Shown one piece after another: positions 12,992 to 31,417 of a DNA stretch of 31,694 nucleotides; positions within the stretch are counted from its first letter, which is position 1; every line of letters starts with the position of its first letter. This DNA is from Candidatus Hodarchaeota archaeon (GTDB taxonomy: Archaea; Asgardarchaeota; Heimdallarchaeia; Hodarchaeales; Hodarchaeaceae): contig JAEOTQ010000200.1 of the NCBI GenBank assembly GCA_016839785.1, forward strand, positions 1 to 31,694, in the 5' to 3' direction. The position numbers and the translations under genes are program-made. The notes beneath the pieces are model-generated. The model was not told the DNA's origin, did no database searches, and saw nothing but the letters and a program-made list of their open reading frames with translations.

Positions 12992-13126
12992 AACTAATCA
13001 AATTTAACATTGATCAAACCTAAAACATCAAATATCCAATGCAATTTACACACGATTGGTAGCAACTAGTAACACGTTGAGAGAATGTAAACCTATTCTA
13101 AATATAAATCGAAATCAGGGACTTCT

Positions 13127-14335
13127 ATGGACTCATTAACATTTATCCTCTTAATTGTATTCGTTTGGCTTGTATTATCAGGCATTTCAAGGATGTCTTG
13201 GTTTACAGTGAGTAATCCGAGAATTGGTTTAGGTAGTGCTTTCTATCATACAACTAGGTTAAATGACTTGATTTCTAGAATAGGAGGTCGGGGAAGATTT
13301 TTTTGGAAACTGCTCTGGGATGTGGGCATAATATCTGGTTTAGGAATCCTATTCACAGGACTTATTGTATTTTCAATCAATATCGTTACATTTTTCCTCC
13401 CTAGATCAAGTGATGTCACACCAATTGCCATTACTCCCGTTATTCCGGGGATAACAGTTTCTTTTGCATCACTACCGTACTTTGTTGTTGCAATTATGAT
13501 TGGGGCCATGGTTCATGAATTCGCTCATGGGATTGCAGCGATAAATGAAAAAATACCGTTGAAAAGCACAGGAATCTTCGTTTTTCTACTATTTTTTGGA
13601 GCATTTGTCGAACCTGAGGAAGAGAAAATTCTAAAGGCCTCAAATCGCTCAAAAATGCGAATAATGGCTGCAGGAGGACTAGCGAATATGATAGTCGCAG
13701 TCTTTTTCCTCACCATTCTTTTATTACCAGTAGGATTTCCCCTCTTAATTTCTCCCCTCTATGAAACTGAATCTAGTGGCGCTCTTGTTGTCAATACGGT
13801 ACCAGGTACACCTGCGAGACAAGAAGGAATTTCTACTGGATTCGCAATCATTGGGGTAGAGAGTGAAGAAGGATATTTCGCAATATACTCAGGTTCAGAT
13901 TTTTCATCTTTTGTTCAAGCTGAAGTTTTCATAAATCAAAGTTTAACATTTCATTTTGCGGGTGGGACAAATCCTATCACATTGCAGACAATGAATAAAT
14001 CTGAAATCACTAATGAAACAATTGATAATAACACTGGTTATATCGGAATTGCTACTTGGAATTATTTCAAACCGAAGATTTTTTCCAATATCTTATTCAT
14101 TAAATTAATGCCCTATTGGTTACTTAACACATTGATGTACACATTTATAGTAAATTTAATGTTAGCATTAATGAATCTATTGCCTGTACCCTTCTTAGAT
14201 GGAGATAAATTACTTGCAGCGTTTTTAGGGGAGAAGAATCAATCTCTTCATAAGAGGATTAAGTATTTTGGACTTATTGTCTTAGTCTTAAATTTTGCTC
14301 TTTCGTTCTTAATTATGGGATGGCAGCAGATCTAA
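13127..14335 (+). CDS. Site-2 protease (M50 intramembrane metalloprotease) with PDZ-like insert
   Basis: HEFAH, GAFVEP, AAGGLAN, NLLPVPFLDG, PVIPG, several TM segments. Confidence 0.92.
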   Translation: MDSLTFILLIVFVWLVLSGISRMSWFTVSNPRIGLGSAFYHTTRLNDLISRIGGRGRFFWKLLWDVGIISGLGILFTGLIVFSINIVTFFLPRSSDVTPIAITPVIPGITVSFASLPYFVVAIMIGAMVHEFAHGIAAINEKIPLKSTGIFVFLLFFGAFVEPEEEKILKASNRSKMRIMAAGGLANMIVAVFFLTILLLPVGFPLLISPLYETESSGALVVNTVPGTPARQEGISTGFAIIGVESEEGYFAIYSGSDFSSFVQAEVFINQSLTFHFAGGTNPITLQTMNKSEITNETIDNNTGYIGIATWNYFKPKIFSNILFIKLMPYWLLNTLMYTFIVNLMLALMNLLPVPFLDGDKLLAAFLGEKNQSLHKRIKYFGLIVLVLNFALSFLIMGWQQI

Positions 14336-15769: not shown

Positions 15770-16696
15770 TTAGATTACGTTATTTAATACTGCTGCGACT
15801 GTATGTAATCGGTTTTCTGCCTCATCAAAAACTACAGAATGACTGCCATATATGATATCGTCAGTTACCTCTTCTTTATGGCGTGGAAGACAATGCATAA
15901 ATATATAATTCTTTGCAGCATGTTCAACCAACTCCTGATTGACTTGAAAACCTTCAAACTTTCTTAATTTCTCTTTTGTCTCTGCTTCTTGTCCCATAGA
16001 TATGAAAGTATCAGTTACAATAACTTCTGCATCTTCAACTGCTGCTATGGGATCATTCGTCACCACCACTTGCTCTGGAGATGAGGCATTAGTATTACAA
16101 TAATCGATAATGCTTATATCAGGCATATAATCTACAGGTGTCCCTATTTGCATCTTCATTCCCATTTTAATAGAAGCAATCATCAGGGTGTGGCACACAT
16201 TATTGCCATCACCAATCCAAGCGATTTTTACATTTTTCAATCTTCCTAAATGTTCCTCAATGGTAAGGATATCAGCTAAACCCTGGAGAGGATGGTACTG
16301 ATCAGATAGAGCATTAATAACAGGGACACCTGCATGTTTTGCAAGAGTTTCCACCGTACTATGTGCATATACACGTGCTAGAACAGCTGAAACCATTCGT
16401 CCCAAGACAATTGCAGTATCTGATAATGATTCATTTACTCCTAACTGAATGTCGTCTTTCCCCAGAAATAGGGCATGACCTCCAAGCTCAGCCATTGCTG
16501 TCTCAGTTGATACCCGCGTTCTTGTAGACCTTTTTTGGAATATCATACCAAGCGTTTTGCCTTTTAATGGTTGAGCTTGAATGTATTTGGATTTATTTTG
16601 CTTGAAAGCTTTTGATTCATCCAATAAAAATCGAATCTCCTCTGATTCTAGGTCTAAAAGTGTTAATAATGATCTACCTTTCATTTGAATTCCCAT
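15770..16696 (-). CDS. argF: Ornithine carbamoyltransferase with eukaryote-type signatures
   Basis: STRT, HPLQ, GDGNN, DTFISMG, HCLP, EAENR. Start likely ATG 16696 or 16684 rather than 16738. Confidence 0.95.
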   Translation of the reverse strand: MGIQMKGRSLLTLLDLESEEIRFLLDESKAFKQNKSKYIQAQPLKGKTLGMIFQKRSTRTRVSTETAMAELGGHALFLGKDDIQLGVNESLSDTAIVLGRMVSAVLARVYAHSTVETLAKHAGVPVINALSDQYHPLQGLADILTIEEHLGRLKNVKIAWIGDGNNVCHTLMIASIKMGMKMQIGTPVDYMPDISIIDYCNTNASSPEQVVVTNDPIAAVEDAEVIVTDTFISMGQEAETKEKLRKFEGFQVNQELVEHAAKNYIFMHCLPRHKEEVTDDIIYGSHSVVFDEAENRLHTVAAVLNNVI

Positions 16697-16727
16697 TATG
16701 CATAACCTTCCTAGTAGTTTAAGATTC

Positions 16728-17015
16728 TCATCCGCCATGAATTACGGGGATGAAAGTAAGTTTATCACCTTGCGCTAGGGGCGAGTCCATACCTTCTAAT
16801 ACAGAAATATCTTGATCATTAATGAAAACGATTACTGATCTAGTAGATTCATAAGAGTCCGTAAAAAAATGATTTAGACCCTTAAATTTTGGTATGTTTG
16901 AGAGTGTTTGAACAACGGATTTTACAGTAGTAGTTCCCTCTTTGAAATCATATGTGAGCTCCATTTGTCCCAAATCGTATTGCAATGAACCCAGAAAAAC
17001 TAAGAGAATTTCCAT
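16728..17015 (-). CDS. Ubiquitin-fold protein, MoaD/Urm1/SAMP family
   Basis: VIVFINDQD...L..GDKLTFIPVIHGG with C-terminal GG. Start ATG 17015. Confidence 0.88.
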   Translation of the reverse strand: MEILLVFLGSLQYDLGQMELTYDFKEGTTTVKSVVQTLSNIPKFKGLNHFFTDSYESTRSVIVFINDQDISVLEGMDSPLAQGDKLTFIPVIHGG

Positions 17016-17042
17016 TCTACTATCAGTCCGCTTGTACAAAAA

Positions 17043-17144
17043 TGCGCCGACCGGGAATTTCAGAACTTCTCGAGAGAGATTTTCATTTGAACCCGGGCTA
17101 TCACCTTGGGAGGGTGAAGTCCTACCAAACTAGACTATCGGCGC
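17043..17144 (-). tRNA. tRNA-Gly(CCC) with 29-nt intron at 59/60
   Basis: Minus strand: GCGCCGA/TCGGCGC+A; D arm GTCT/GGAC; TCACC-CT-CCC-AA-GGTGA; T stem CCGGG/CCCGG. Removing 17057-17085 restores TTCAAAT. Confidence 0.95.
17057..17085 (-). other. tRNA intron with bulge-helix-bulge motif
   Basis: Central helix TTCA/TGAA, bulges AAT and ATT, intron closed by GAA/TTC. Confidence 0.88.
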
Positions 17145-24588: not shown

Positions 24589-25089
24589 GTGATAAGAATG
24601 AAAGGATTAAATTTCTTTGCTCAGATTGGCCCAGAACTCTATATATTTGCTTTTGTTGTGCTAATAGTAGCTAGTGCTTTGGTTTATTATTTTCGTCAAC
24701 GAATTATAGACGCTTTAGGAATCACTGCAGCCAAAAAAACAATTTTAGAACAAGAAATTGAACAACGACTTGTTCAAATTAGGCAGTTAGCACGACAACA
24801 GATGTTTAAAGACGCAGCTGTATTAATGTGGCAGACTATGACTCTGGCTTCCGAGGGCTTCCTTGGAGTTGGTCGTGCACCAAATGAATCTGCAAGACAA
24901 TTAGGTGTCAAGCTAATGAATAGAGGCGATCTCGATCCTAGTGCAATAAATGCAATTATTATAGCATTTGAAAAAGCAAGATATGGACAGACCCCCTTAA
25001 CTAATCAAGAATTTAAGGATGGCTTATCAGGTCTGCATCAATTCCTACAAATGGCTACTTCACTTGGAGAAATTCCCCTAGCAGAATAA
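24589..25089 (+). CDS. DUF4129-like membrane protein
   Basis: N-terminal TM; R.PNES.RQ and FEKARYG motifs; position upstream of DUF4350-MoxR-DUF58. Confidence 0.75.
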   Translation: MIRMKGLNFFAQIGPELYIFAFVVLIVASALVYYFRQRIIDALGITAAKKTILEQEIEQRLVQIRQLARQQMFKDAAVLMWQTMTLASEGFLGVGRAPNESARQLGVKLMNRGDLDPSAINAIIIAFEKARYGQTPLTNQEFKDGLSGLHQFLQMATSLGEIPLAE

Positions 25090-25132
25090 GAACGAAAAAA
25101 ATAGTGTAATGCTTTCGACGAAGTGAGTTATC

Positions 25133-26842
25133 ATGGCTGAAATCAATAAAACAACGAGTGCTTTTATTATTCTAGCCATATTCATTTCTTATCCATTCGT
25201 TTCTGCATCAATACTCGGATTTCTATTTACCAATAACTCTACGAATTTTTCGATCTATAATGAAGGTTGGAATGGTGCAAGTACTTTTAAAGATCTTTTT
25301 GTCGAGGAAGGAGCTGAAATATCAACTATTGTTGGAAGTAGCAATGTTCTCAATCGATTAAACCAATCCGATATAGGGGGAAATCAAGGGTCATTAATTA
25401 TTCTTGGCCCATCTGTTCATTATGATTTTTCAGAATCATTAGCAATTTTGATGTACGCTATTAATGGGGGAAGAGTAATAATTGCTGACGATTTTGGAAC
25501 AGGTAACGACATTCTAAGCGTTTTATCCATATTTTTGGGATTTATCTCCGAGATCGACTTGGGATCTATGGGTTTTGGTGATTCAGGTGGTACAAATCCA
25601 CTTGGGATGGATACAGGCACTGCTGGTGAAAATACTACATTTCCTTTTCCTATAGCAGGAATTGCATTCAATGGAAGTTTGTTAGCTGATCAAGGAAGTT
25701 ATGATGATACCCCACTAACGCCTATATTTCAATCTCCAAGCACTTCTCAGGAAGGAACTACTTATAAGATGCCTGCTCCTTGGGTTACTGATTTCACAAC
25801 GGGATTGAGCGGAAATGGGGTAATTGGGAATTTTGCTTCTATTATTACTATGAAAGTCCGCTATCCTGATCCGAACAATACTGAAACAAATCCTAATGCA
25901 ACCGAATATATTACTAAATGGGTTCCAATGGGAGAATTTCCCGCCTCGGCTGCATCGGCTTATGAAAGTCTGGAATTGCCTCCAGGAGTTGAACTCCCAG
26001 ATATGTCATTTAGTTTACAAATCGCAGTATTATACAGTAGCACTCATGCCTGGATGGAATCCGATATCTCATCAGCAAAAGCTGATGTTAATAGTATTGA
26101 ACCTAATCTGGACGAATGGGGAAATCCCAATATAGGATTCCCAGTATTTGTGTATTTTCCCTTTCCACTAGGTGGCCAAATAATTCTGTGTTCTGATCCC
26201 TCAATATTCATAAATCAATACCTGGATTCTGATAATACGGATTATCCGCTGGCAAGTCAATATGATAATCGAGTATTTACTGATAATGTCATACGTATAA
26301 TGATGAATGAACGTCCTGGACAAACAATAATTTTTGATGAAGGACATCTGGCAAATAGTCCGATATCACCCATATTCCCCTTGAGTCTTTATCTCAAATT
26401 CTTAGATATGATTACAATGTTTCCTTTATTCGCAATTTTCTTGGTTCCTATTGCAGTAATTTTGTCTCGTAAATTCATTCCAAGAAAGACTCAAGCAAAA
26501 CCGTTACTACTCACACGAGTTGAACGTTACTATGGGCGAAGTTTCTTTGCCGTGAAGATGAGATGGTTTCTTGAATATCGACAGTACTCAAGAGGCCTTG
26601 AACTGATATTTAGAAGATTAAAACGAAATGTTATCAGGCGTTATAGTCCAGATGAGGATCTGACTCCTGATGTCATTGCTACATATTTGATGAATGAGTT
26701 TCCAGAGAATTTTTCGTACAAAAATCTCGTGGAGAACTTCTCATTAATTGAGAATATAATTGAAGCCCGATCATTAATATCTGAAGAGGAATTCCTCGAC
26801 CATTACTTTTTCCTTAAAAACGTAGGATCAGTAATAAGCTAA
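25133..26842 (+). CDS. DUF4350-like membrane-anchored protein
   Basis: FSIYNEGWNGAS, GGRVIIADDFGTGN, SDPSIFIN, IIFDEGH; N-terminal and late TM segments plus a cytoplasmic helical tail. Confidence 0.78.
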   Translation: MAEINKTTSAFIILAIFISYPFVSASILGFLFTNNSTNFSIYNEGWNGASTFKDLFVEEGAEISTIVGSSNVLNRLNQSDIGGNQGSLIILGPSVHYDFSESLAILMYAINGGRVIIADDFGTGNDILSVLSIFLGFISEIDLGSMGFGDSGGTNPLGMDTGTAGENTTFPFPIAGIAFNGSLLADQGSYDDTPLTPIFQSPSTSQEGTTYKMPAPWVTDFTTGLSGNGVIGNFASIITMKVRYPDPNNTETNPNATEYITKWVPMGEFPASAASAYESLELPPGVELPDMSFSLQIAVLYSSTHAWMESDISSAKADVNSIEPNLDEWGNPNIGFPVFVYFPFPLGGQIILCSDPSIFINQYLDSDNTDYPLASQYDNRVFTDNVIRIMMNERPGQTIIFDEGHLANSPISPIFPLSLYLKFLDMITMFPLFAIFLVPIAVILSRKFIPRKTQAKPLLLTRVERYYGRSFFAVKMRWFLEYRQYSRGLELIFRRLKRNVIRRYSPDEDLTPDVIATYLMNEFPENFSYKNLVENFSLIENIIEARSLISEEEFLDHYFFLKNVGSVIS

Positions 26843-26886
26843 TGAAAATAGAATTATAATAATAAATACATGCTAATACATAAGAA

Positions 26887-27954
26887 GTGGAAGAAATGAG
26901 TAATACCAGTGCAAAGGGTAAGGATTTCACAAGCGATGAAATCACCTATGAAATGCTTGATGTGAGTGATATCGCTCGAGCATATCAACAAATCATGGGG
27001 GAAATCCGGAAAGTATACATTGGAAGAACTGAAATATTTGAAATGCTTTGGATAGCAATGCTAACTGGAAAACATGTGTATTTAGAAGGGGTTCCAGGAA
27101 TTGGAAAGACGTATATGGCCAATACATTCTCTCAATGTCTTGGTGCTGATTTCAGTCGTGTCCAATTTACTCCTGACATGCTTCCATCGGATATTGTCGG
27201 TACAAATATATTTAATCCAAAAACAGGGACATTTCGGCTAAAAAAAGGTCCCATCTTTGGCAATGTCATACTAGCTGACGAAGTAAACAGAGCTCCACCT
27301 AAAACTCAATCTGCAATGCTTGAAGCAATGGGCGAAGGACAAGTGACAATAGAAGGAGAAACACACAAATTAGAAAAGCCATTTGTGGTCTTAGCTACTG
27401 CGAATCCAGTTGAACAAGAAGGAACATATCCTTTACCTGAAGCTCAACTTGACCGATTTATGATTAAGGTGATTATACATCATTCATCACCAGATGATGA
27501 ATTACGGATCATAAAATTCAAAAATGAGCCAATTCCAGCTAAGATTAAACAGGTGGTCTCACCTCAGACAATCGTGGCCATGATGGATGTAGTCAAGCGT
27601 GTTTATGTGTCTCCAGAAATCTTGGAAATGATACGGGATATCACGGTTTCTACACGTACAGATCCACGATTAATTCTAGGGTGCTCTCCCCGAGGAAGTG
27701 AAAGTCTATTACTTTCAGGAAAATCACGAGCGGCTATTCATGGACGTGATTTCGTGATTCCAGACGATGTTATACTTATGATTCCGCATATCGTACATCA
27801 TCGTCTTATCCTTAAGCCTGAAGCTGAACTAGAAGGAATCACCCAAATCCGAATTTCAGAGGATGTACGGGATAGTCTAACCATCCCAGTAGATCCTGTT
27901 GAAGAAGAAATGGTATATGAAGAATATATAGAAGAAATCGAGGATGATGAATAA
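26887..27954 (+). CDS. moxR: MoxR-family AAA+ ATPase
   Basis: EGVPGIGKT, RVQFTPDMLPSD, LADEVNRAPPKTQSA, NPVEQEGTYPLPEAQLDRF; acidic tail. Confidence 0.95.
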   Translation: MEEMSNTSAKGKDFTSDEITYEMLDVSDIARAYQQIMGEIRKVYIGRTEIFEMLWIAMLTGKHVYLEGVPGIGKTYMANTFSQCLGADFSRVQFTPDMLPSDIVGTNIFNPKTGTFRLKKGPIFGNVILADEVNRAPPKTQSAMLEAMGEGQVTIEGETHKLEKPFVVLATANPVEQEGTYPLPEAQLDRFMIKVIIHHSSPDDELRIIKFKNEPIPAKIKQVVSPQTIVAMMDVVKRVYVSPEILEMIRDITVSTRTDPRLILGCSPRGSESLLLSGKSRAAIHGRDFVIPDDVILMIPHIVHHRLILKPEAELEGITQIRISEDVRDSLTIPVDPVEEEMVYEEYIEEIEDDE

Positions 27955-28000
27955 CGAAATATTCTCATCAACTGTATGGAGTGTAAAGGTGTATCCTTGA

Positions 28001-29470
28001 ATGCTTTCGTCTCGTGGTGCTTTTATCGCTATTGGAGGAATCGTACTTCTTTCGATTGGACTGAGTGCAAAGGGAATTGGAACAGTTACGACTATGGTTC
28101 CCATTCTTTTTAGTGGTGAGGGATTAATTCAACAATCAGGCAATCAAACTGCAAGTGGTTTACCTGAAGGAATGGAATTTCTCGAAGCTTTTGAGATATT
28201 GAACAGCTCTCCGATTGTTGATTACAGTATGTTTTTAGGAACATTATTGATTTTAGCTAGCGTCATTGGATTACCACTTTTTAGAAGATCTGCAAACGCT
28301 TCATTAATCCGAGTTACACGTATGGTAGATCGAGAAAAAGCTTTTGCGGGGGAGTACGTTCATGTAACAGTTCGAGTAGAAAACACTGGCAAAAAAAGAA
28401 TGGATTTTCTAGAAGTCTATGACGCAATTCCCGACATGTTTGAGATAGTTTTAGGTGAGAACTTCATTATAACTCAATTAGCTGGTCGTGAAGCAAAAGA
28501 GTTTTCTTATATAATTCAGGTCAGTACGAGGGGAGTGTACCAGATAGGGCCTGTAAAAGTAATCATTCATGATCGATTAGGCTTTTATTTTGAAGAAGAT
28601 GTAAGACATTTTTATACTGAAGTGTTATGCTATCCATCTTACGAAGATATTCGTAGAATGGAGGCCTTGAGCAAGCGAAGGCAACAGGGTAAAATGTTTG
28701 GTGCCCATAAAACAAGGCAAAAAGGCATGGGAGATGATTTCCATTCTCTTGCACGTTATTATCCTGGAGCTCCATTCAAATCCTTGGATTGGAAAGCTTT
28801 TAGCCGTACAGGAGAGTTAATGGTACGGGAGTTTGAGGCTGAGAAGAACATTCGAATTGTACTATTTCTCGACCACAGTGGCAGTATGGGAGCTGGTATT
28901 CCGTATAATACGAAATTAGATTTTGCAATCCGGTCAGTGATGCTAGTTATGAAGATGGCTGAAGAACGTCAAGATCTTTTTGGACTGGTTACATATGCGG
29001 ATAGACCCACATCTTTTTTACCTCCTGGGGGTAGTAAATCGATGTTCCATCAACTTCTTGAAATTCTCGCATTGGTGGAACCAGAAGGTCGCTCTGATCC
29101 TCTTGCCGCAGTCGACTATGTCATGCAAAGATTACCAAGAGCATCATTTTACGTTTTCATTACGGATTTAGAATCTTCGGATTCAGAGATTTTTACTGAG
29201 GCCGCTAAACGAGCACGTTCCACTAAAAATAAAATAACAGTAATTTCACCTTTTGGCCCATTATTTGAAGCAAAACTAACTGACTTATCAACAACTGAAA
29301 GAGCTATCGCTGAAGCAATCTTTGAAGAATATTTAGGATATCGTAAACAGGTAGAAGATAGCTTGAGAGGTCTGGGAGTAGAAATCATCAACGTTGGTCC
29401 TGATGATATTCTCCCTAATGTAATCAAGACATATATGAAAGGAAAACAAGCTGGAAAAGGTTCGGTGTAA
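28001..29470 (+). CDS. DUF58 family protein with vWA/MIDAS domain
   Basis: Two N-terminal TMs, RGVYQIGP...DRLGF, DFHSLARYYPG..F..LDWKA..RTGELMVREFE, MIDAS DHSGS. Confidence 0.9.
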   Translation: MLSSRGAFIAIGGIVLLSIGLSAKGIGTVTTMVPILFSGEGLIQQSGNQTASGLPEGMEFLEAFEILNSSPIVDYSMFLGTLLILASVIGLPLFRRSANASLIRVTRMVDREKAFAGEYVHVTVRVENTGKKRMDFLEVYDAIPDMFEIVLGENFIITQLAGREAKEFSYIIQVSTRGVYQIGPVKVIIHDRLGFYFEEDVRHFYTEVLCYPSYEDIRRMEALSKRRQQGKMFGAHKTRQKGMGDDFHSLARYYPGAPFKSLDWKAFSRTGELMVREFEAEKNIRIVLFLDHSGSMGAGIPYNTKLDFAIRSVMLVMKMAEERQDLFGLVTYADRPTSFLPPGGSKSMFHQLLEILALVEPEGRSDPLAAVDYVMQRLPRASFYVFITDLESSDSEIFTEAAKRARSTKNKITVISPFGPLFEAKLTDLSTTERAIAEAIFEEYLGYRKQVEDSLRGLGVEIINVGPDDILPNVIKTYMKGKQAGKGSV

Positions 29471-29475
29471 TCAAA

Positions 29476-30861
29476 ATGGCAACTAGTCAAAGTGCAGCAT
29501 ATTTCTTTCGAATAATCTATGTTGTCTTGTTTATCTTTTCTGGCTACCTAGTAATTGCTAGTATTGATCCAGCAATGTTTGATTTCACGAAAGTTTTTGA
29601 AATTTTAAATTATATTATGCTGATAGTTCAAGGCCTCATCAGTGCACTGGGAGGAATTGCAAAAATAATTACTAATTCCATCCTCTCAGGTAAAGCATCT
29701 ATTCCGATCCTTGGAAGTATCATCGGAGATCCAAGCTTAGGTACTATTAATGTTGGTGATATTGAGCAAATGCTTGCAGCAATTTTCAATCCTTCTAATG
29801 GATTTTTTCCTCATTCTACCATTGATCTTACTACAGTGGATATTATTCAAGACTTCTCTATATTCATTGGTGCAACAACAATCTTATTTTTGTTACCAGT
29901 TGCTTTTTTCTCAGGAATAGGCTTCCTTCGTGAAGGAGATACAAAATTAGCTATTTATTCATTCTTAGGTTTCCAAATGATATTGATAGTTGCAATCTTT
30001 ACTCAGAACATCAAGATTTCAACAGAGATTGATACAAGTTCAATACCATCCATGATTTTCAGTCCTATCTTTACTTTGGGCTTTTTGTTATATCTCCTCC
30101 TAGAAGTGGCATTTCAGACCTCATATACTTTGAACATTATAGAACCAATGGCTGAGCGGGAAAAAAGAATTCAGGAACACCTTAAACGAATTCGTAGCTT
30201 TGTACCAACAGAAGAGGGTACGAAAAGTACAGAAAAATCGATACAAAGTGTTCAATCAAAGAAATTTGGCCTTTTAGCAGCAAGCTATCTTCGTGAGATG
30301 GTTGAACGACGTGTGTTCAGAAGTGGCGAAACAGTCCGAGATACGAAATCTATGATGAGATTACAGTCGTACCTGGCTAATTTACAACAAAGTGATCCTC
30401 GAACAGATATAAAATTAGCTGCACAAACAGCTCAACCAGATGCAGGCTCATTAATTAAATATTTTATTCCTACAATGATATTCCGAATTATTGCTGTAGT
30501 ACTACTTTCATATTTCGTTATGGCCCCGCAGTGGATATTAGATCTTGAAATACCAATTCTTAACATAAAACTATTTATTTTTCCAGCGCTACTTGATAGT
30601 CTTGAGTTGTCACAACCCGAATTCCAAACAATAGCAATTATGAACGTGGTCCTGATCCTAATACTTATTAGCGCCGTTCTGAATTATTTATCAGGTGGTA
30701 AAACTAGAACAGTCATGAAACGTGTTGTCCAAAGAATCGACACCCTTGTTGATTTTGATCGCTCTTCTCCGCAACCTACAGCTGCTAGCGAAATATCTGA
30801 TATAGAGAGTGCAGTAGAGGAGGAAGAATTAGTGGAAGAGGAGGAGGAAGAAGAGATATAA
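29476..30861 (+). CDS. Hypothetical polytopic membrane protein with a cytoplasmic helical loop and Glu-rich tail
   Basis: About 6-7 hydrophobic segments; starts 5 nt after the DUF58 stop. Confidence 0.8.
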   Translation: MATSQSAAYFFRIIYVVLFIFSGYLVIASIDPAMFDFTKVFEILNYIMLIVQGLISALGGIAKIITNSILSGKASIPILGSIIGDPSLGTINVGDIEQMLAAIFNPSNGFFPHSTIDLTTVDIIQDFSIFIGATTILFLLPVAFFSGIGFLREGDTKLAIYSFLGFQMILIVAIFTQNIKISTEIDTSSIPSMIFSPIFTLGFLLYLLLEVAFQTSYTLNIIEPMAEREKRIQEHLKRIRSFVPTEEGTKSTEKSIQSVQSKKFGLLAASYLREMVERRVFRSGETVRDTKSMMRLQSYLANLQQSDPRTDIKLAAQTAQPDAGSLIKYFIPTMIFRIIAVVLLSYFVMAPQWILDLEIPILNIKLFIFPALLDSLELSQPEFQTIAIMNVVLILILISAVLNYLSGGKTRTVMKRVVQRIDTLVDFDRSSPQPTAASEISDIESAVEEEELVEEEEEEEI

Positions 30862-30883
30862 TCTCCCTTTTGAGTGTGAACCT

Positions 30884-31417
30884 ATGCCTAAACTGGATCC
30901 AGAAAGTAGTGATGCACGGAAAAAGCTTAATAATAGCATTCCTGGCTATGTATGTTACGAAAAACAACCAGATAGGAAAAATTCTGATATTTCGATCAGA
31001 GAGTATTTGGAAAATCGTTTGTCAACCTGCTCAGATGATGTAAAGAAAATTCAAGAAGCTGCATTAATGAGCCAGATGATTACAACATGGTCAGACCTTG
31101 ATAGACTGGTATCTACCTTTACAGATGCAAGATATTTAATTAAAGGGTCGAAATATGGCATCAGTACATTCTTTGATTCTGGACTAATCAAAGACTTCGA
31201 CTTGGGCTATCTATATACCTTAGAAAAAACTGTCCTTGATGTAATTGATCGTTTAGATGAGAAAATAAAACAATTTGATGAATCAATTGAGAGTGGAATG
31301 CTTTCTGACAGTAGCAGGTTAACAAATGAAATTTTGGAAGATTTAAGTGCAATTCAGGATGCTTGGTTAGAAAGACAGAAACTTATAGCTGATTTTCAAA
31401 AATTAGGTCTTGTTTAA
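30884..31417 (+). CDS. Hypothetical helical protein
   Basis: 177-aa ORF with IPGY.CY....R..D...R.YL N-terminal motif and coiled-coil character. Confidence 0.75.
   Translation: MPKLDPESSDARKKLNNSIPGYVCYEKQPDRKNSDISIREYLENRLSTCSDDVKKIQEAALMSQMITTWSDLDRLVSTFTDARYLIKGSKYGISTFFDSGLIKDFDLGYLYTLEKTVLDVIDRLDEKIKQFDESIESGMLSDSSRLTNEILEDLSAIQDAWLERQKLIADFQKLGLV

Follow-up and report, generated by a model that had tools for sequence, protein, structure and literature searches.

The closest described relatives of the gene treated here are the mitochondrial ornithine carbamoyltransferases (OTCs) of animals and fungi, for which structures of the human (PDB 1c9y and 1oth) and sheep (1fb5) enzymes are available, and the OTC of Pyrococcus furiosus (1pvv and 1a1s). 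The human, sheep and Pyrococcus OTCs are anabolic enzymes, and the Pyrococcus OTC works with a carbamate-kinase-like source of carbamoyl phosphate. The gene itself is a predicted OTC gene of Candidatus Hodarchaeota archaeon (Asgardarchaeota; Heimdallarchaeia; Hodarchaeales; Hodarchaeaceae), located on contig JAEOTQ010000200.1 of assembly GCA_016839785.1. The whole stretch of DNA that was analysed, positions 1 to 31,694 of this contig (31,694 nucleotides), is called the window throughout. A preliminary description of the window, made from the sequence, had reported an OTC with animal- and fungal-type signatures and had proposed that the eukaryotic urea-cycle OTC may descend from the archaeal host lineage, or that the gene had been transferred horizontally.

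In those portions of their article that are considered here, Novak et al. (2016; PMC5052871) distinguish three eukaryotic OTC clades, of which clade 1 obtained a support of 100/100 and had no clear prokaryotic sister, and they describe other OTC types for plants, metamonads and other eukaryotes. Going by these portions, the OTCs of animals, fungi and stramenopiles discussed below are clade 1, which is the sole one of the three eukaryotic clades involved. A link between Asgard and eukaryotic OTCs is already in print in the form of a preprint (Santana-Molina, Spang & Snel, 2026, 'Origins of eukaryotic metabolism'; bioRxiv 10.64898/2026.05.08.723234). The portions considered here list OTC, together with arcA and argE, among what eukaryotic amino-acid metabolism putatively owes to Asgardarchaeota or other archaea and refer to an OTC tree in Fig. 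4A. Signature motifs, the absence of argG in Heimdallarchaeia and a catabolic role do not figure in these portions of the preprint, and our literature search, judged in part by titles and abstracts, found nothing else on an Asgard-eukaryote OTC link, on carbamate kinase of Heimdallarchaeia or on arginine deiminase of Asgard archaea. As far as we have seen, it is apparently not in print that the motifs and a deletion form a synapomorphy, that the nearest relatives of the eukaryotic enzymes are Kariarchaeaceae-like and not Hodarchaeales-like and that a class-wide lack of argG goes together with the presence of carbamate kinase.

We consider it likely that the window gene belongs to an OTC lineage common to Asgard archaea and eukaryotes, that the eukaryotic enzyme is nested within this lineage and that the enzyme is catabolic in the archaeon.

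Assignment of the gene to the OTC family

Comparison of the predicted protein with NCBIfam models gave 412.6 bits for TIGR00658, the OTC equivalog with a cutoff of 280.85, and Pfam models revealed two carbamoyltransferase domains, PF02729 (OTCace_N; residues 22-162; 163.8 bits) and PF00185 (OTCace; residues 168-319; 172.5 bits). Rival models stayed under their cutoffs, with 293 versus 500 bits for putrescine, 134 versus 288 for N-acetylornithine and 135 versus 237 for aspartate carbamoyltransferase, and 36 versus 453 for YgeW. Likewise, the ArcB-type models NF002470, NF003286 and NF009213 gave 187-271 bits, far below their cutoffs of 515-559. When aligned with human OTC, the protein has STRTR, HPLQ, DxxxSMG and HCLP all at the expected places; the motifs STRTR, HPxQ, DxxxSMG and HCLP are what we take to be the catalytic and substrate-site motifs of carbamoyltransferases. 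The best solved relatives were sheep OTC (325.5 bits) and human OTC (320.9 bits), and the Pyrococcus OTC came close to the animal enzymes with scores just below (320.2 and 319.4 bits). Judged by models and motifs, the window gene is a genuine OTC (EC 2.1.3.3) of an Asgard archaeon. It is the one OTC of its own genome, in which a different contig carries two OTC-like paralogues.

An enzyme for another substrate, for example putrescine, N-acetylornithine, N-succinylornithine or some other amine, might also be considered, in which case LGVNES and HCLPR would reflect an altered specificity and not ancestry. Carbamoyltransferases switch their substrate readily, and the two OTC-like paralogues of the genome lie beside a carbamate kinase. 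However, human OTC, whose substrate is ornithine, has the same motif set, DxxxSMG and HCLP are intact in the window protein, and the putrescine and acetylornithine models remained at the low scores given above, which makes such a change of substrate highly improbable.

The open reading frame extends over 15770..16738 of the minus strand and encodes 322 amino acids when counted from the first ATG. Position 16696, at which the preliminary description had ended the gene, belongs to the ATG of Met15, and a start there leads to a protein of 308 amino acids, followed by a TAA stop codon. Met15 is the probable true start of the OTC, because a length of 308 amino acids matches that of the close homologues (304-310 amino acids, with 94-96% coverage of the window query), because a GGAAGG purine stretch is found a few bases upstream of the Met15 ATG and because the longer form overlaps the upstream gene.

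A signature shared by Asgard and eukaryotic OTCs

The window protein carries KRSTRTRVSTE, LGVNES and HCLPRHKEEV with a one-residue deletion, like human and fungal OTCs. In human OTC (1c9y), the corresponding strings are ekrstrtrlstet, dihlgvnesl and hclprkpeev, and fungal OTCs have DIQLGVNESLYDT and HCLPRH[NQK]EEV. In contrast, the Pyrococcus OTC (1pvv) is of the ordinary archaeal type, with kpstrtrvsfe, qlrrge (hence LRRGE at the loop) and hclpahrgeev, and is one residue longer. All four strings quoted in the preliminary description are present in the window protein, and the human strings given there, DIHLGVNESL and HCLPRKPEEV, were correct. Of the strings it gave as typical of prokaryotes, KPSTRTRVSFE and HCLPAHRGEEV are found in Pyrococcus OTC, which has qlrrge at the place of QLGRGE. 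The short deletion after HCLP is indeed common to the window, human and fungal OTCs and shortens the distance from HCLP to ENR from 27 to 26. The window protein and the mitochondrial OTCs of animals and fungi therefore have in common the family, the mature length, the KRSTRTR..STE, LGVNES and HCLPR motifs, the deletion and, as described below, the clade. They differ in that the window protein lacks the N-terminal targeting extension and has Gln where the human enzyme has His (D-I-H/Q-LGVNES).

The full signature was defined as KRSTRTR, LGxNE[ST] and HCLPR combined with an HCLP-to-ENR spacing of 26. It was encountered in 119 of the 120 best matches of the window protein and in 110 of the 120 best matches of a tunicate OTC, in 5 of 150 database-wide representatives at 50% identity and in one of the 80 prokaryotic genome loci examined. 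None of the three motifs, together with a spacing of 27, was the state in 85/150 representatives and 64/80 loci. As its distribution tracks a clade, the signature is far beyond chance and marks that clade.

The 120 best matches of the window protein, obtained from a collection of 5.8 billion proteins, were 58-99% identical to it and, where named, bore the labels Hodarchaeales, Heimdallarchaeota, Promethearchaeota and Helarchaeota, besides one Thorarchaeota and one 'Deferrimicrobium'. The last of these, 'Candidatus Deferrimicrobium sp.' (P0101), was rejected as a bacterial member of the group: it is 100% identical to an OTC (L111) of genome G126, which the genome collection used here places in the Asgard phylum, and its name at NCBI probably reflects a conflict of taxonomic labelling or binning.

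Within the Asgard phylum, 352 of 400 genomes had an OTC match at E ≤ 1e-40, and the signature was tabulated by family for the sequences extracted (f numbers are our own handles). The full signature was present in f1, the window's genus, in f5 and f6, which belong to the same class and include proteins labelled Kariarchaeaceae and Heimdallarchaeota LC_2, and in f15 of another class with Helarchaeota-like labels. In f5 and f6, the third motif takes the form HCLPRK[PQ]xEV, as in animals. Family f4 (Heimdallarchaeaceae-like labels) combines KRSTRTRVSTE with LGAGE and HCLPYKHKEA. Most other families, namely f7-f14, f16, f28, f30, f31 and others, have OTCs of the ordinary type, and f2, which is of the same order as the window, has a divergent OTC with HCLPRT.. 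and 40-42% identity. As the OTC of f2 differs in this way and the window's genus groups with f15 of another class, the history of OTC in the window's order involves replacement or transfer.

Two further observations concern divergent Asgard genes. The f2 OTCs (L140 of genome G082 and L141 of genome G081) have HCLPRT[EP]HEI, pass TIGR00658 at 379 bits and branch outside the clade of eukaryote/Asgard-type enzymes. Loki-like families (L143 of genome G149 in f20; L144 of genome G137 in f19) possess a divergent OTC-like gene with about 39% identity and with NCLP in place of HCLP, which adjoins a carbamate kinase gene. In the trees of Novak et al. (2016; PMC5052871), going by the portions considered, a Lokiarchaeum OTC fell into another of the eukaryotic clades, that of metamonads and others, but this position had no support.

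Nearest relatives outside the own cluster

When 1.84 billion representatives at 50% identity were searched exhaustively with HMMER, the top clusters beyond the query's own were eukaryotic proteins with N-terminal extensions and scores of 272-306 bits. Among them were the mitochondrial OTC of Styela clava (306.5 bits; 50% identity to the window protein) and the proteins of Rhodotorula (281.8 bits) and Thoreauomyces (272.4 bits), and Sorochytrium and Phaffia followed further down; the first sequence of the ordinary type, P0128, scored 267.7 bits. When the OTC of f5 was employed as query, the named matches were solely Heimdall-type archaea and eukaryotes, such as the chrysophyte Chromulina (65%) and the diatom Nitzschia (61%). 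Identity to human OTC amounted to 50.7% for the window protein, 55.0% for f5, 60.9% for f6, 50.8% for f4 and 48.5% for f15, and the f5 and f6 OTCs were 54-57% identical to the window protein. N-terminal extensions are found on the eukaryotic members, and the archaeal ones lack them. The preliminary description had reckoned with a bacterial clade lying closer to the eukaryotic enzymes; neither a confirmed bacterium within the clade nor a bacterial group nearer to the eukaryotic OTCs appeared in the HMMER pass, in the search with f5 or in the trees.

Phylogeny of Asgard and eukaryotic OTCs

A quick LG+G4 tree of 108 rows, in which three paralogous carbamoyltransferases served as the root, contained a clade of 56 Asgard and eukaryotic rows with an SH-aLRT value of 99, which comprised f32, f4, f1+f15, a group of 313-amino-acid proteins, f5, f6 and all eukaryotes. 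The assignment of the outgroup row L002 as 'ATCase' was rejected, as this protein is an N-acetylornithine/YgeW-like paralogue (275.7 bits versus a cutoff of 288); as an outgroup, the three rows remain suitable.

More careful trees were calculated under LG+C20+F+G4 (PMSF). For a tree of 64 rows, 44 of the initial 108 were dropped, namely close relatives that were redundant, distant OTCs of the ordinary type and the three paralogue outgroups. For a tree of 79 rows, the long-branch sequences P0146 and P0131 were removed, and 17 rows were added to include stramenopiles and Heimdall proteins bearing a name. In the 64-row tree, the Asgard and eukaryotic clade had a support of 96/94, f1+f15 of 100/98 and f4 of 98/95; f5, f6 and P0144 joined the eukaryotes with 100/97, and the eukaryotes alone obtained 93/77. 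In the 79-row tree, the support was 100/98 for the Asgard and eukaryotic clade, 100/99 for f4 with proteins labelled Heimdallarchaeaceae, 100/99 for f1+f15 and 96/94 for a protein labelled Hodarchaeales with the 313-amino-acid group. A group of 37 rows (100/98) appeared there as a polytomy of five groups, which were the animals (95/91), the fungi (100/96), the stramenopiles (95/86), an N-terminally extended group (100/100) and f5+f6 with proteins labelled Kariarchaeaceae and LC_2 (86/96). Ordinary archaeal OTCs lay outside the clade, whose support was 96-100% in these trees, and the window protein did not group with ordinary ArgF, an outcome that the preliminary description had taken into account.

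The origin suggested for the eukaryotic OTC, by descent from the archaeal host or by horizontal transfer, thus gains support from a clade with values of 96/94 to 100/98, although the window's genus is not the closest to the eukaryotes. The window's lineage is a cousin of the eukaryotic OTC, and the nearest archaeal sequences are those of f5 and f6 from the same class. The f5 and f6 OTCs resemble the window protein in belonging to the same Asgard-type clade and in having the same three signatures, but their partners in the trees are the eukaryotes (100/97-98), and that of the window's genus is f15. In the AU test, an exclusive clade of eukaryotes and the window's genus was rejected (delta lnL 65.6, p 0.00026), and with the 79 rows a clade that unites all Asgard-type OTCs and leaves out the eukaryotes was rejected as well (delta lnL 43.6, p 0.0096).

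The opposite course, by which the Asgard-type OTCs as a whole would descend from a eukaryotic gene, has in its favour that f5+f6 form a polytomy with four eukaryotic groups, and a transfer into f5/f6 alone could have occurred. However, with ordinary OTCs as outgroup, the eukaryotes nest several nodes deep (100/98, 98/96 and 97/87), and f32, f4, f1+f15 and the 313-amino-acid group lie outside the group of eukaryotes and f5/f6. Also, this OTC type extends over two classes and at least six families of Asgard archaea, the gene occurs throughout the window's genus and is syntenic there, and the archaeal genes have no N-terminal extensions. Descent of the whole Asgard type from eukaryotes is therefore quite improbable.

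One eukprot transcriptome ORF, P0487 (277 amino acids), nests inside the archaeal f6 in the 79-row tree and represents either an archaeal sequence that contaminates a protist transcriptome or a gene that was transferred very recently.

Genomic setting of the OTC gene

The preliminary description had noted that the gene sits among clearly archaeal genes, and this holds: its neighbours encode a histone-fold protein, L10e, an eRF1-domain protein, PTH2, an F420 ligase, FtsZ and a Urm1/ThiS-like protein, and the GC content is even along the window (0.33-0.40). The OTC was found in 21/21 other genomes of the window's genus with 70-86% identity. Of its direct neighbours, the upstream Urm1-like gene is kept in 19 of 20 loci of the genus and the downstream ORF167 in all 20; this gene order is conserved within the genus only and is uninformative on function. 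In view of its presence throughout the genus and of the conserved neighbours, the window OTC is a resident gene and no contaminant.

An artefact, either in the form of a eukaryotic contaminant contig or of convergent motifs, deserves mention because the 'eukaryotic' ORF P0487 inside f6 demonstrates that cross-contamination happens. The window gene, however, lies in the middle of 31.7 kb among archaeal genes of even GC, has no introns and no targeting peptide, and occurs with the same neighbours in 21/21 genomes of the genus. Convergence, moreover, does not account for whole-length identities of 50-61% to eukaryotic OTCs combined with tree support. An artefact is effectively refuted and its probability is negligible.

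Table 1. Positions of the OTC gene, its motifs and other features in the window.
Feature	Position	Strand	Basis or remark
OTC coding sequence	15770..16696	-	Pfam, TIGR00658, homologue length, upstream GGAAGG
Possible 14-codon N-terminal extension (first-ATG start)	16697..16738	-	would overlap the 3' end of the Urm1/ThiS-like gene; probably untranslated
FQKRSTRTRVSTE: carbamoyl-phosphate-binding STRTR motif, KR...STE 'eukaryote/Asgard' form	16502..16540	-	ordinary prokaryotic OTCs have K[PSA]STRTRVSFE
FLGKDDIQLGVNESL: LGVNES form of the loop	16424..16468	-	sequence and alignment; LGRGE in ordinary prokaryotic OTCs
VLARVY	16367..16384	-	found in the sequence
HPLQ (HPxQ of carbamoyltransferases)	16283..16294	-	invariant in OTC alignment
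DTFISMGQE: DxxxSMG ornithine-binding loop typical of OTC	15986..16012	-	D, S and G invariant, M nearly so, in OTC alignment
HCLPRHKEEV: HCLP ornithine-site motif, then Arg and one-residue deletion compared with HCLPAHRGEEV	15866..15895	-	HCLP-to-ENR spacing 26
Urm1/ThiS-like beta-grasp protein, 103 amino acids, ending GG	16728..17039	-	directly upstream of OTC
Histone-fold protein, 103 amino acids	10228..10539	-	fold at residues 34-96; N-terminal extension of about 30 residues
ORF of 1692 amino acids	19358..24436	+	no Pfam match
DUF4350 protein, MoxR-type AAA ATPase, DUF58/VWA protein and two more ORFs	24589..31417	+	follow the 1692-amino-acid ORF; the two ORFs have no matches

No functional tie between the Urm1/ThiS-like protein and the OTC is evident. 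Elsewhere in the window, the histone-fold protein may be a tailed archaeal histone, and the region from the ORF of 1692 amino acids to position 31417 is reminiscent of a MoxR-VWA module joined to a giant protein.

Arginine metabolism of the own genome and of its relatives

In profile searches of the own genome, argG (argininosuccinate synthase), argH (argininosuccinate lyase), carB, argC and pyrB gave no match over the cutoff. Matches of argG over the cutoff were also absent from all 22 genomes of the genus and occurred in one of the 83 genomes of the class, which include genomes of 96-99% completeness; as a control, the same search found argG in 14/14 reference genomes, and the control for argH was likewise positive in 14/14. 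Carbamate kinase (TIGR00746), on the other hand, is present in the own genome with 380.7 bits versus a cutoff of 358.25 (G000:C103:15616-16581), and matches were obtained in 20 of the 22 genomes of the genus, 16 of them over the cutoff, and in 73 of the 83 genomes of the class. The own genome also encodes a protein of 307 amino acids from the arginine deiminase family (PF02274; 121 bits), which has a weak match to DDAH_eukar (37 bits) and whose relatives are matched in 20/22 genomes of the genus.

Taken together, we lean towards a catabolic function of the archaeal OTC and away from arginine synthesis or a urea cycle, because a path by which citrulline could become arginine was not seen, nor were ornithine synthesis, a carbamoyl-phosphate synthetase or an aspartate carbamoyltransferase, but carbamate kinase is present. 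An enzyme of the arginine deiminase family would form citrulline, presumably from arginine, OTC would split citrulline with phosphate to ornithine and carbamoyl phosphate, if it operates in the assumed direction, and carbamate kinase would use the carbamoyl phosphate to form ATP. In this proposed role, a citrulline phosphorolysis that feeds carbamate kinase, the window OTC would be similar to bacterial ArcB, and the own genome has both a carbamate kinase and a protein of the arginine deiminase family. It differs from ArcB in that the protein is not of the ArcB-type models and there is no arc operon. From the mitochondrial OTCs it differs in that its archaeon is devoid of argG, so that its role is probably not in arginine synthesis or the urea cycle. 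At the level of the class, the frequencies of argG (1/83) and carbamate kinase (73/83) suggest arginine auxotrophy and carbamoyl-phosphate-based ATP formation across the Heimdallarchaeia.

If the window OTC were instead an ordinary anabolic ArgF that provides citrulline for arginine biosynthesis, it would be expected to pass TIGR00658, as it does, since this equivalog model was built mainly on biosynthetic enzymes. The nearest solved relatives, human, sheep and Pyrococcus OTC, and the incompleteness of the own genome speak for such an enzyme as well. Nevertheless, argG appears to be lacking throughout the genus and in all but one genome of the class in spite of nearly complete genomes, and with argH, argC and carB not found in the own genome either, citrulline would be a dead end. 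We regard the anabolic alternative as unlikely.

The carbamate kinase gene on contig C103 is flanked by the two OTC-like paralogues (13116-14150 and 16624-17100; loci L002 and L164). The complete paralogue has 357 amino acids and HCLPQDRGMEV, and it reaches 275.7 bits with the N-acetylornithine carbamoyltransferase model (cutoff 288) and 170 bits with the YgeW-like model; the second one is cut by the contig end. This cluster looks like a second catabolic module for carbamoyl compounds.

Discussion

The results can be brought together in an OTC lineage that has been found so far in Asgard archaea and eukaryotes only and that would be marked by KRSTRTR..STE, LGxNE[ST] and HCLPR with the one-residue deletion. 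Nested in the Asgard lineage, beside the Kariarchaeaceae-like f5 and f6, would be the mitochondrial OTC that animals, fungi and stramenopiles possess. Because the eukaryotes nest within an otherwise Asgard-only lineage, their OTC is most likely of Asgard origin and would have acquired its N-terminal targeting extension afterwards. The direction and the timing of the passage from archaeon to eukaryote are what we infer from the trees, which fit descent from the archaeal host and an early transfer from Asgard archaea to eukaryotes alike.

Several results weigh against an Asgard origin of the eukaryotic enzyme or against a catabolic function of the archaeal one. With the 64 rows, the AU test did not reject a clade in which all Asgard-type OTCs stand together and the eukaryotes outside (delta lnL 18.8, p 0.155), and the p-values of all AU tests are weakened by the fact that the groups were partly picked after the trees had been seen. 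The 79-row tree leaves the monophyly of the eukaryotes and the branching sequence of animals, fungi, stramenopiles and f5+f6 as a polytomy, and because the 37-row group is a polytomy, the f5/f6 gene could be of eukaryotic origin; in that case too, the eukaryotic clade would still lie amid the other Asgard families. The eukaryotic sampling did not include plants, metamonads and most protists. Furthermore, a profile scan of genome contigs yielded mostly ordinary OTCs among the matches listed (at least 600), and judging by that scan a bacterial member of the clade might still exist. As to function, the case for a catabolic OTC is drawn from gene content, and the own genome is 84.5% complete with 3.4% contamination. 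The arcA equivalog reaches about 94 bits in the own genome and at most 111.6 bits in the genus versus a cutoff of 489, and the deiminase-like protein could be a DDAH-like or another enzyme of the amidinotransferase superfamily. The genes for OTC (contig C180), carbamate kinase (C103) and the arginine-deiminase-like protein (C45) are unlinked on different contigs, and no carbamate kinase or arginine-deiminase-like gene was present in the flanks of any eukaryote-type Asgard OTC locus examined.

Having weighed these points, we still favour a lineage of Asgard and eukaryotic OTCs with the eukaryotic enzyme nested inside and a catabolic enzyme in the archaeon. A more far-reaching version is conceivable, and we put it forward only tentatively. 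The OTC of opisthokonts and stramenopiles would then be derived from the Heimdallarchaeial host, would ancestrally have been a catabolic enzyme of an argG-less amino-acid fermenter, where it and carbamate kinase would have generated ATP from arginine or citrulline, and would have been retargeted to the mitochondrion in the course of eukaryogenesis and reversed to serve biosynthesis and the urea cycle. The gene tree points to a donor that was Kariarchaeaceae-like and not Hodarchaeales-like. If that were true, such a donor would conflict with a strict placement of the eukaryotes as sister of the Hodarchaeales.

The window gene adds an independent confirmation of the Asgard-eukaryote OTC link that is easily checked by three motifs and a one-residue deletion. 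If the ancestral role was an energy-yielding breakdown of citrulline, the enzyme would have changed its direction on the eukaryotic line. If the Asgard origin is true, a textbook mitochondrial enzyme of the urea cycle would be one of the rare metabolic traits that were inherited from the archaeal host and not from the bacterial endosymbiont, and a host-derived OTC would bear on how the metabolism of host and symbiont was merged.

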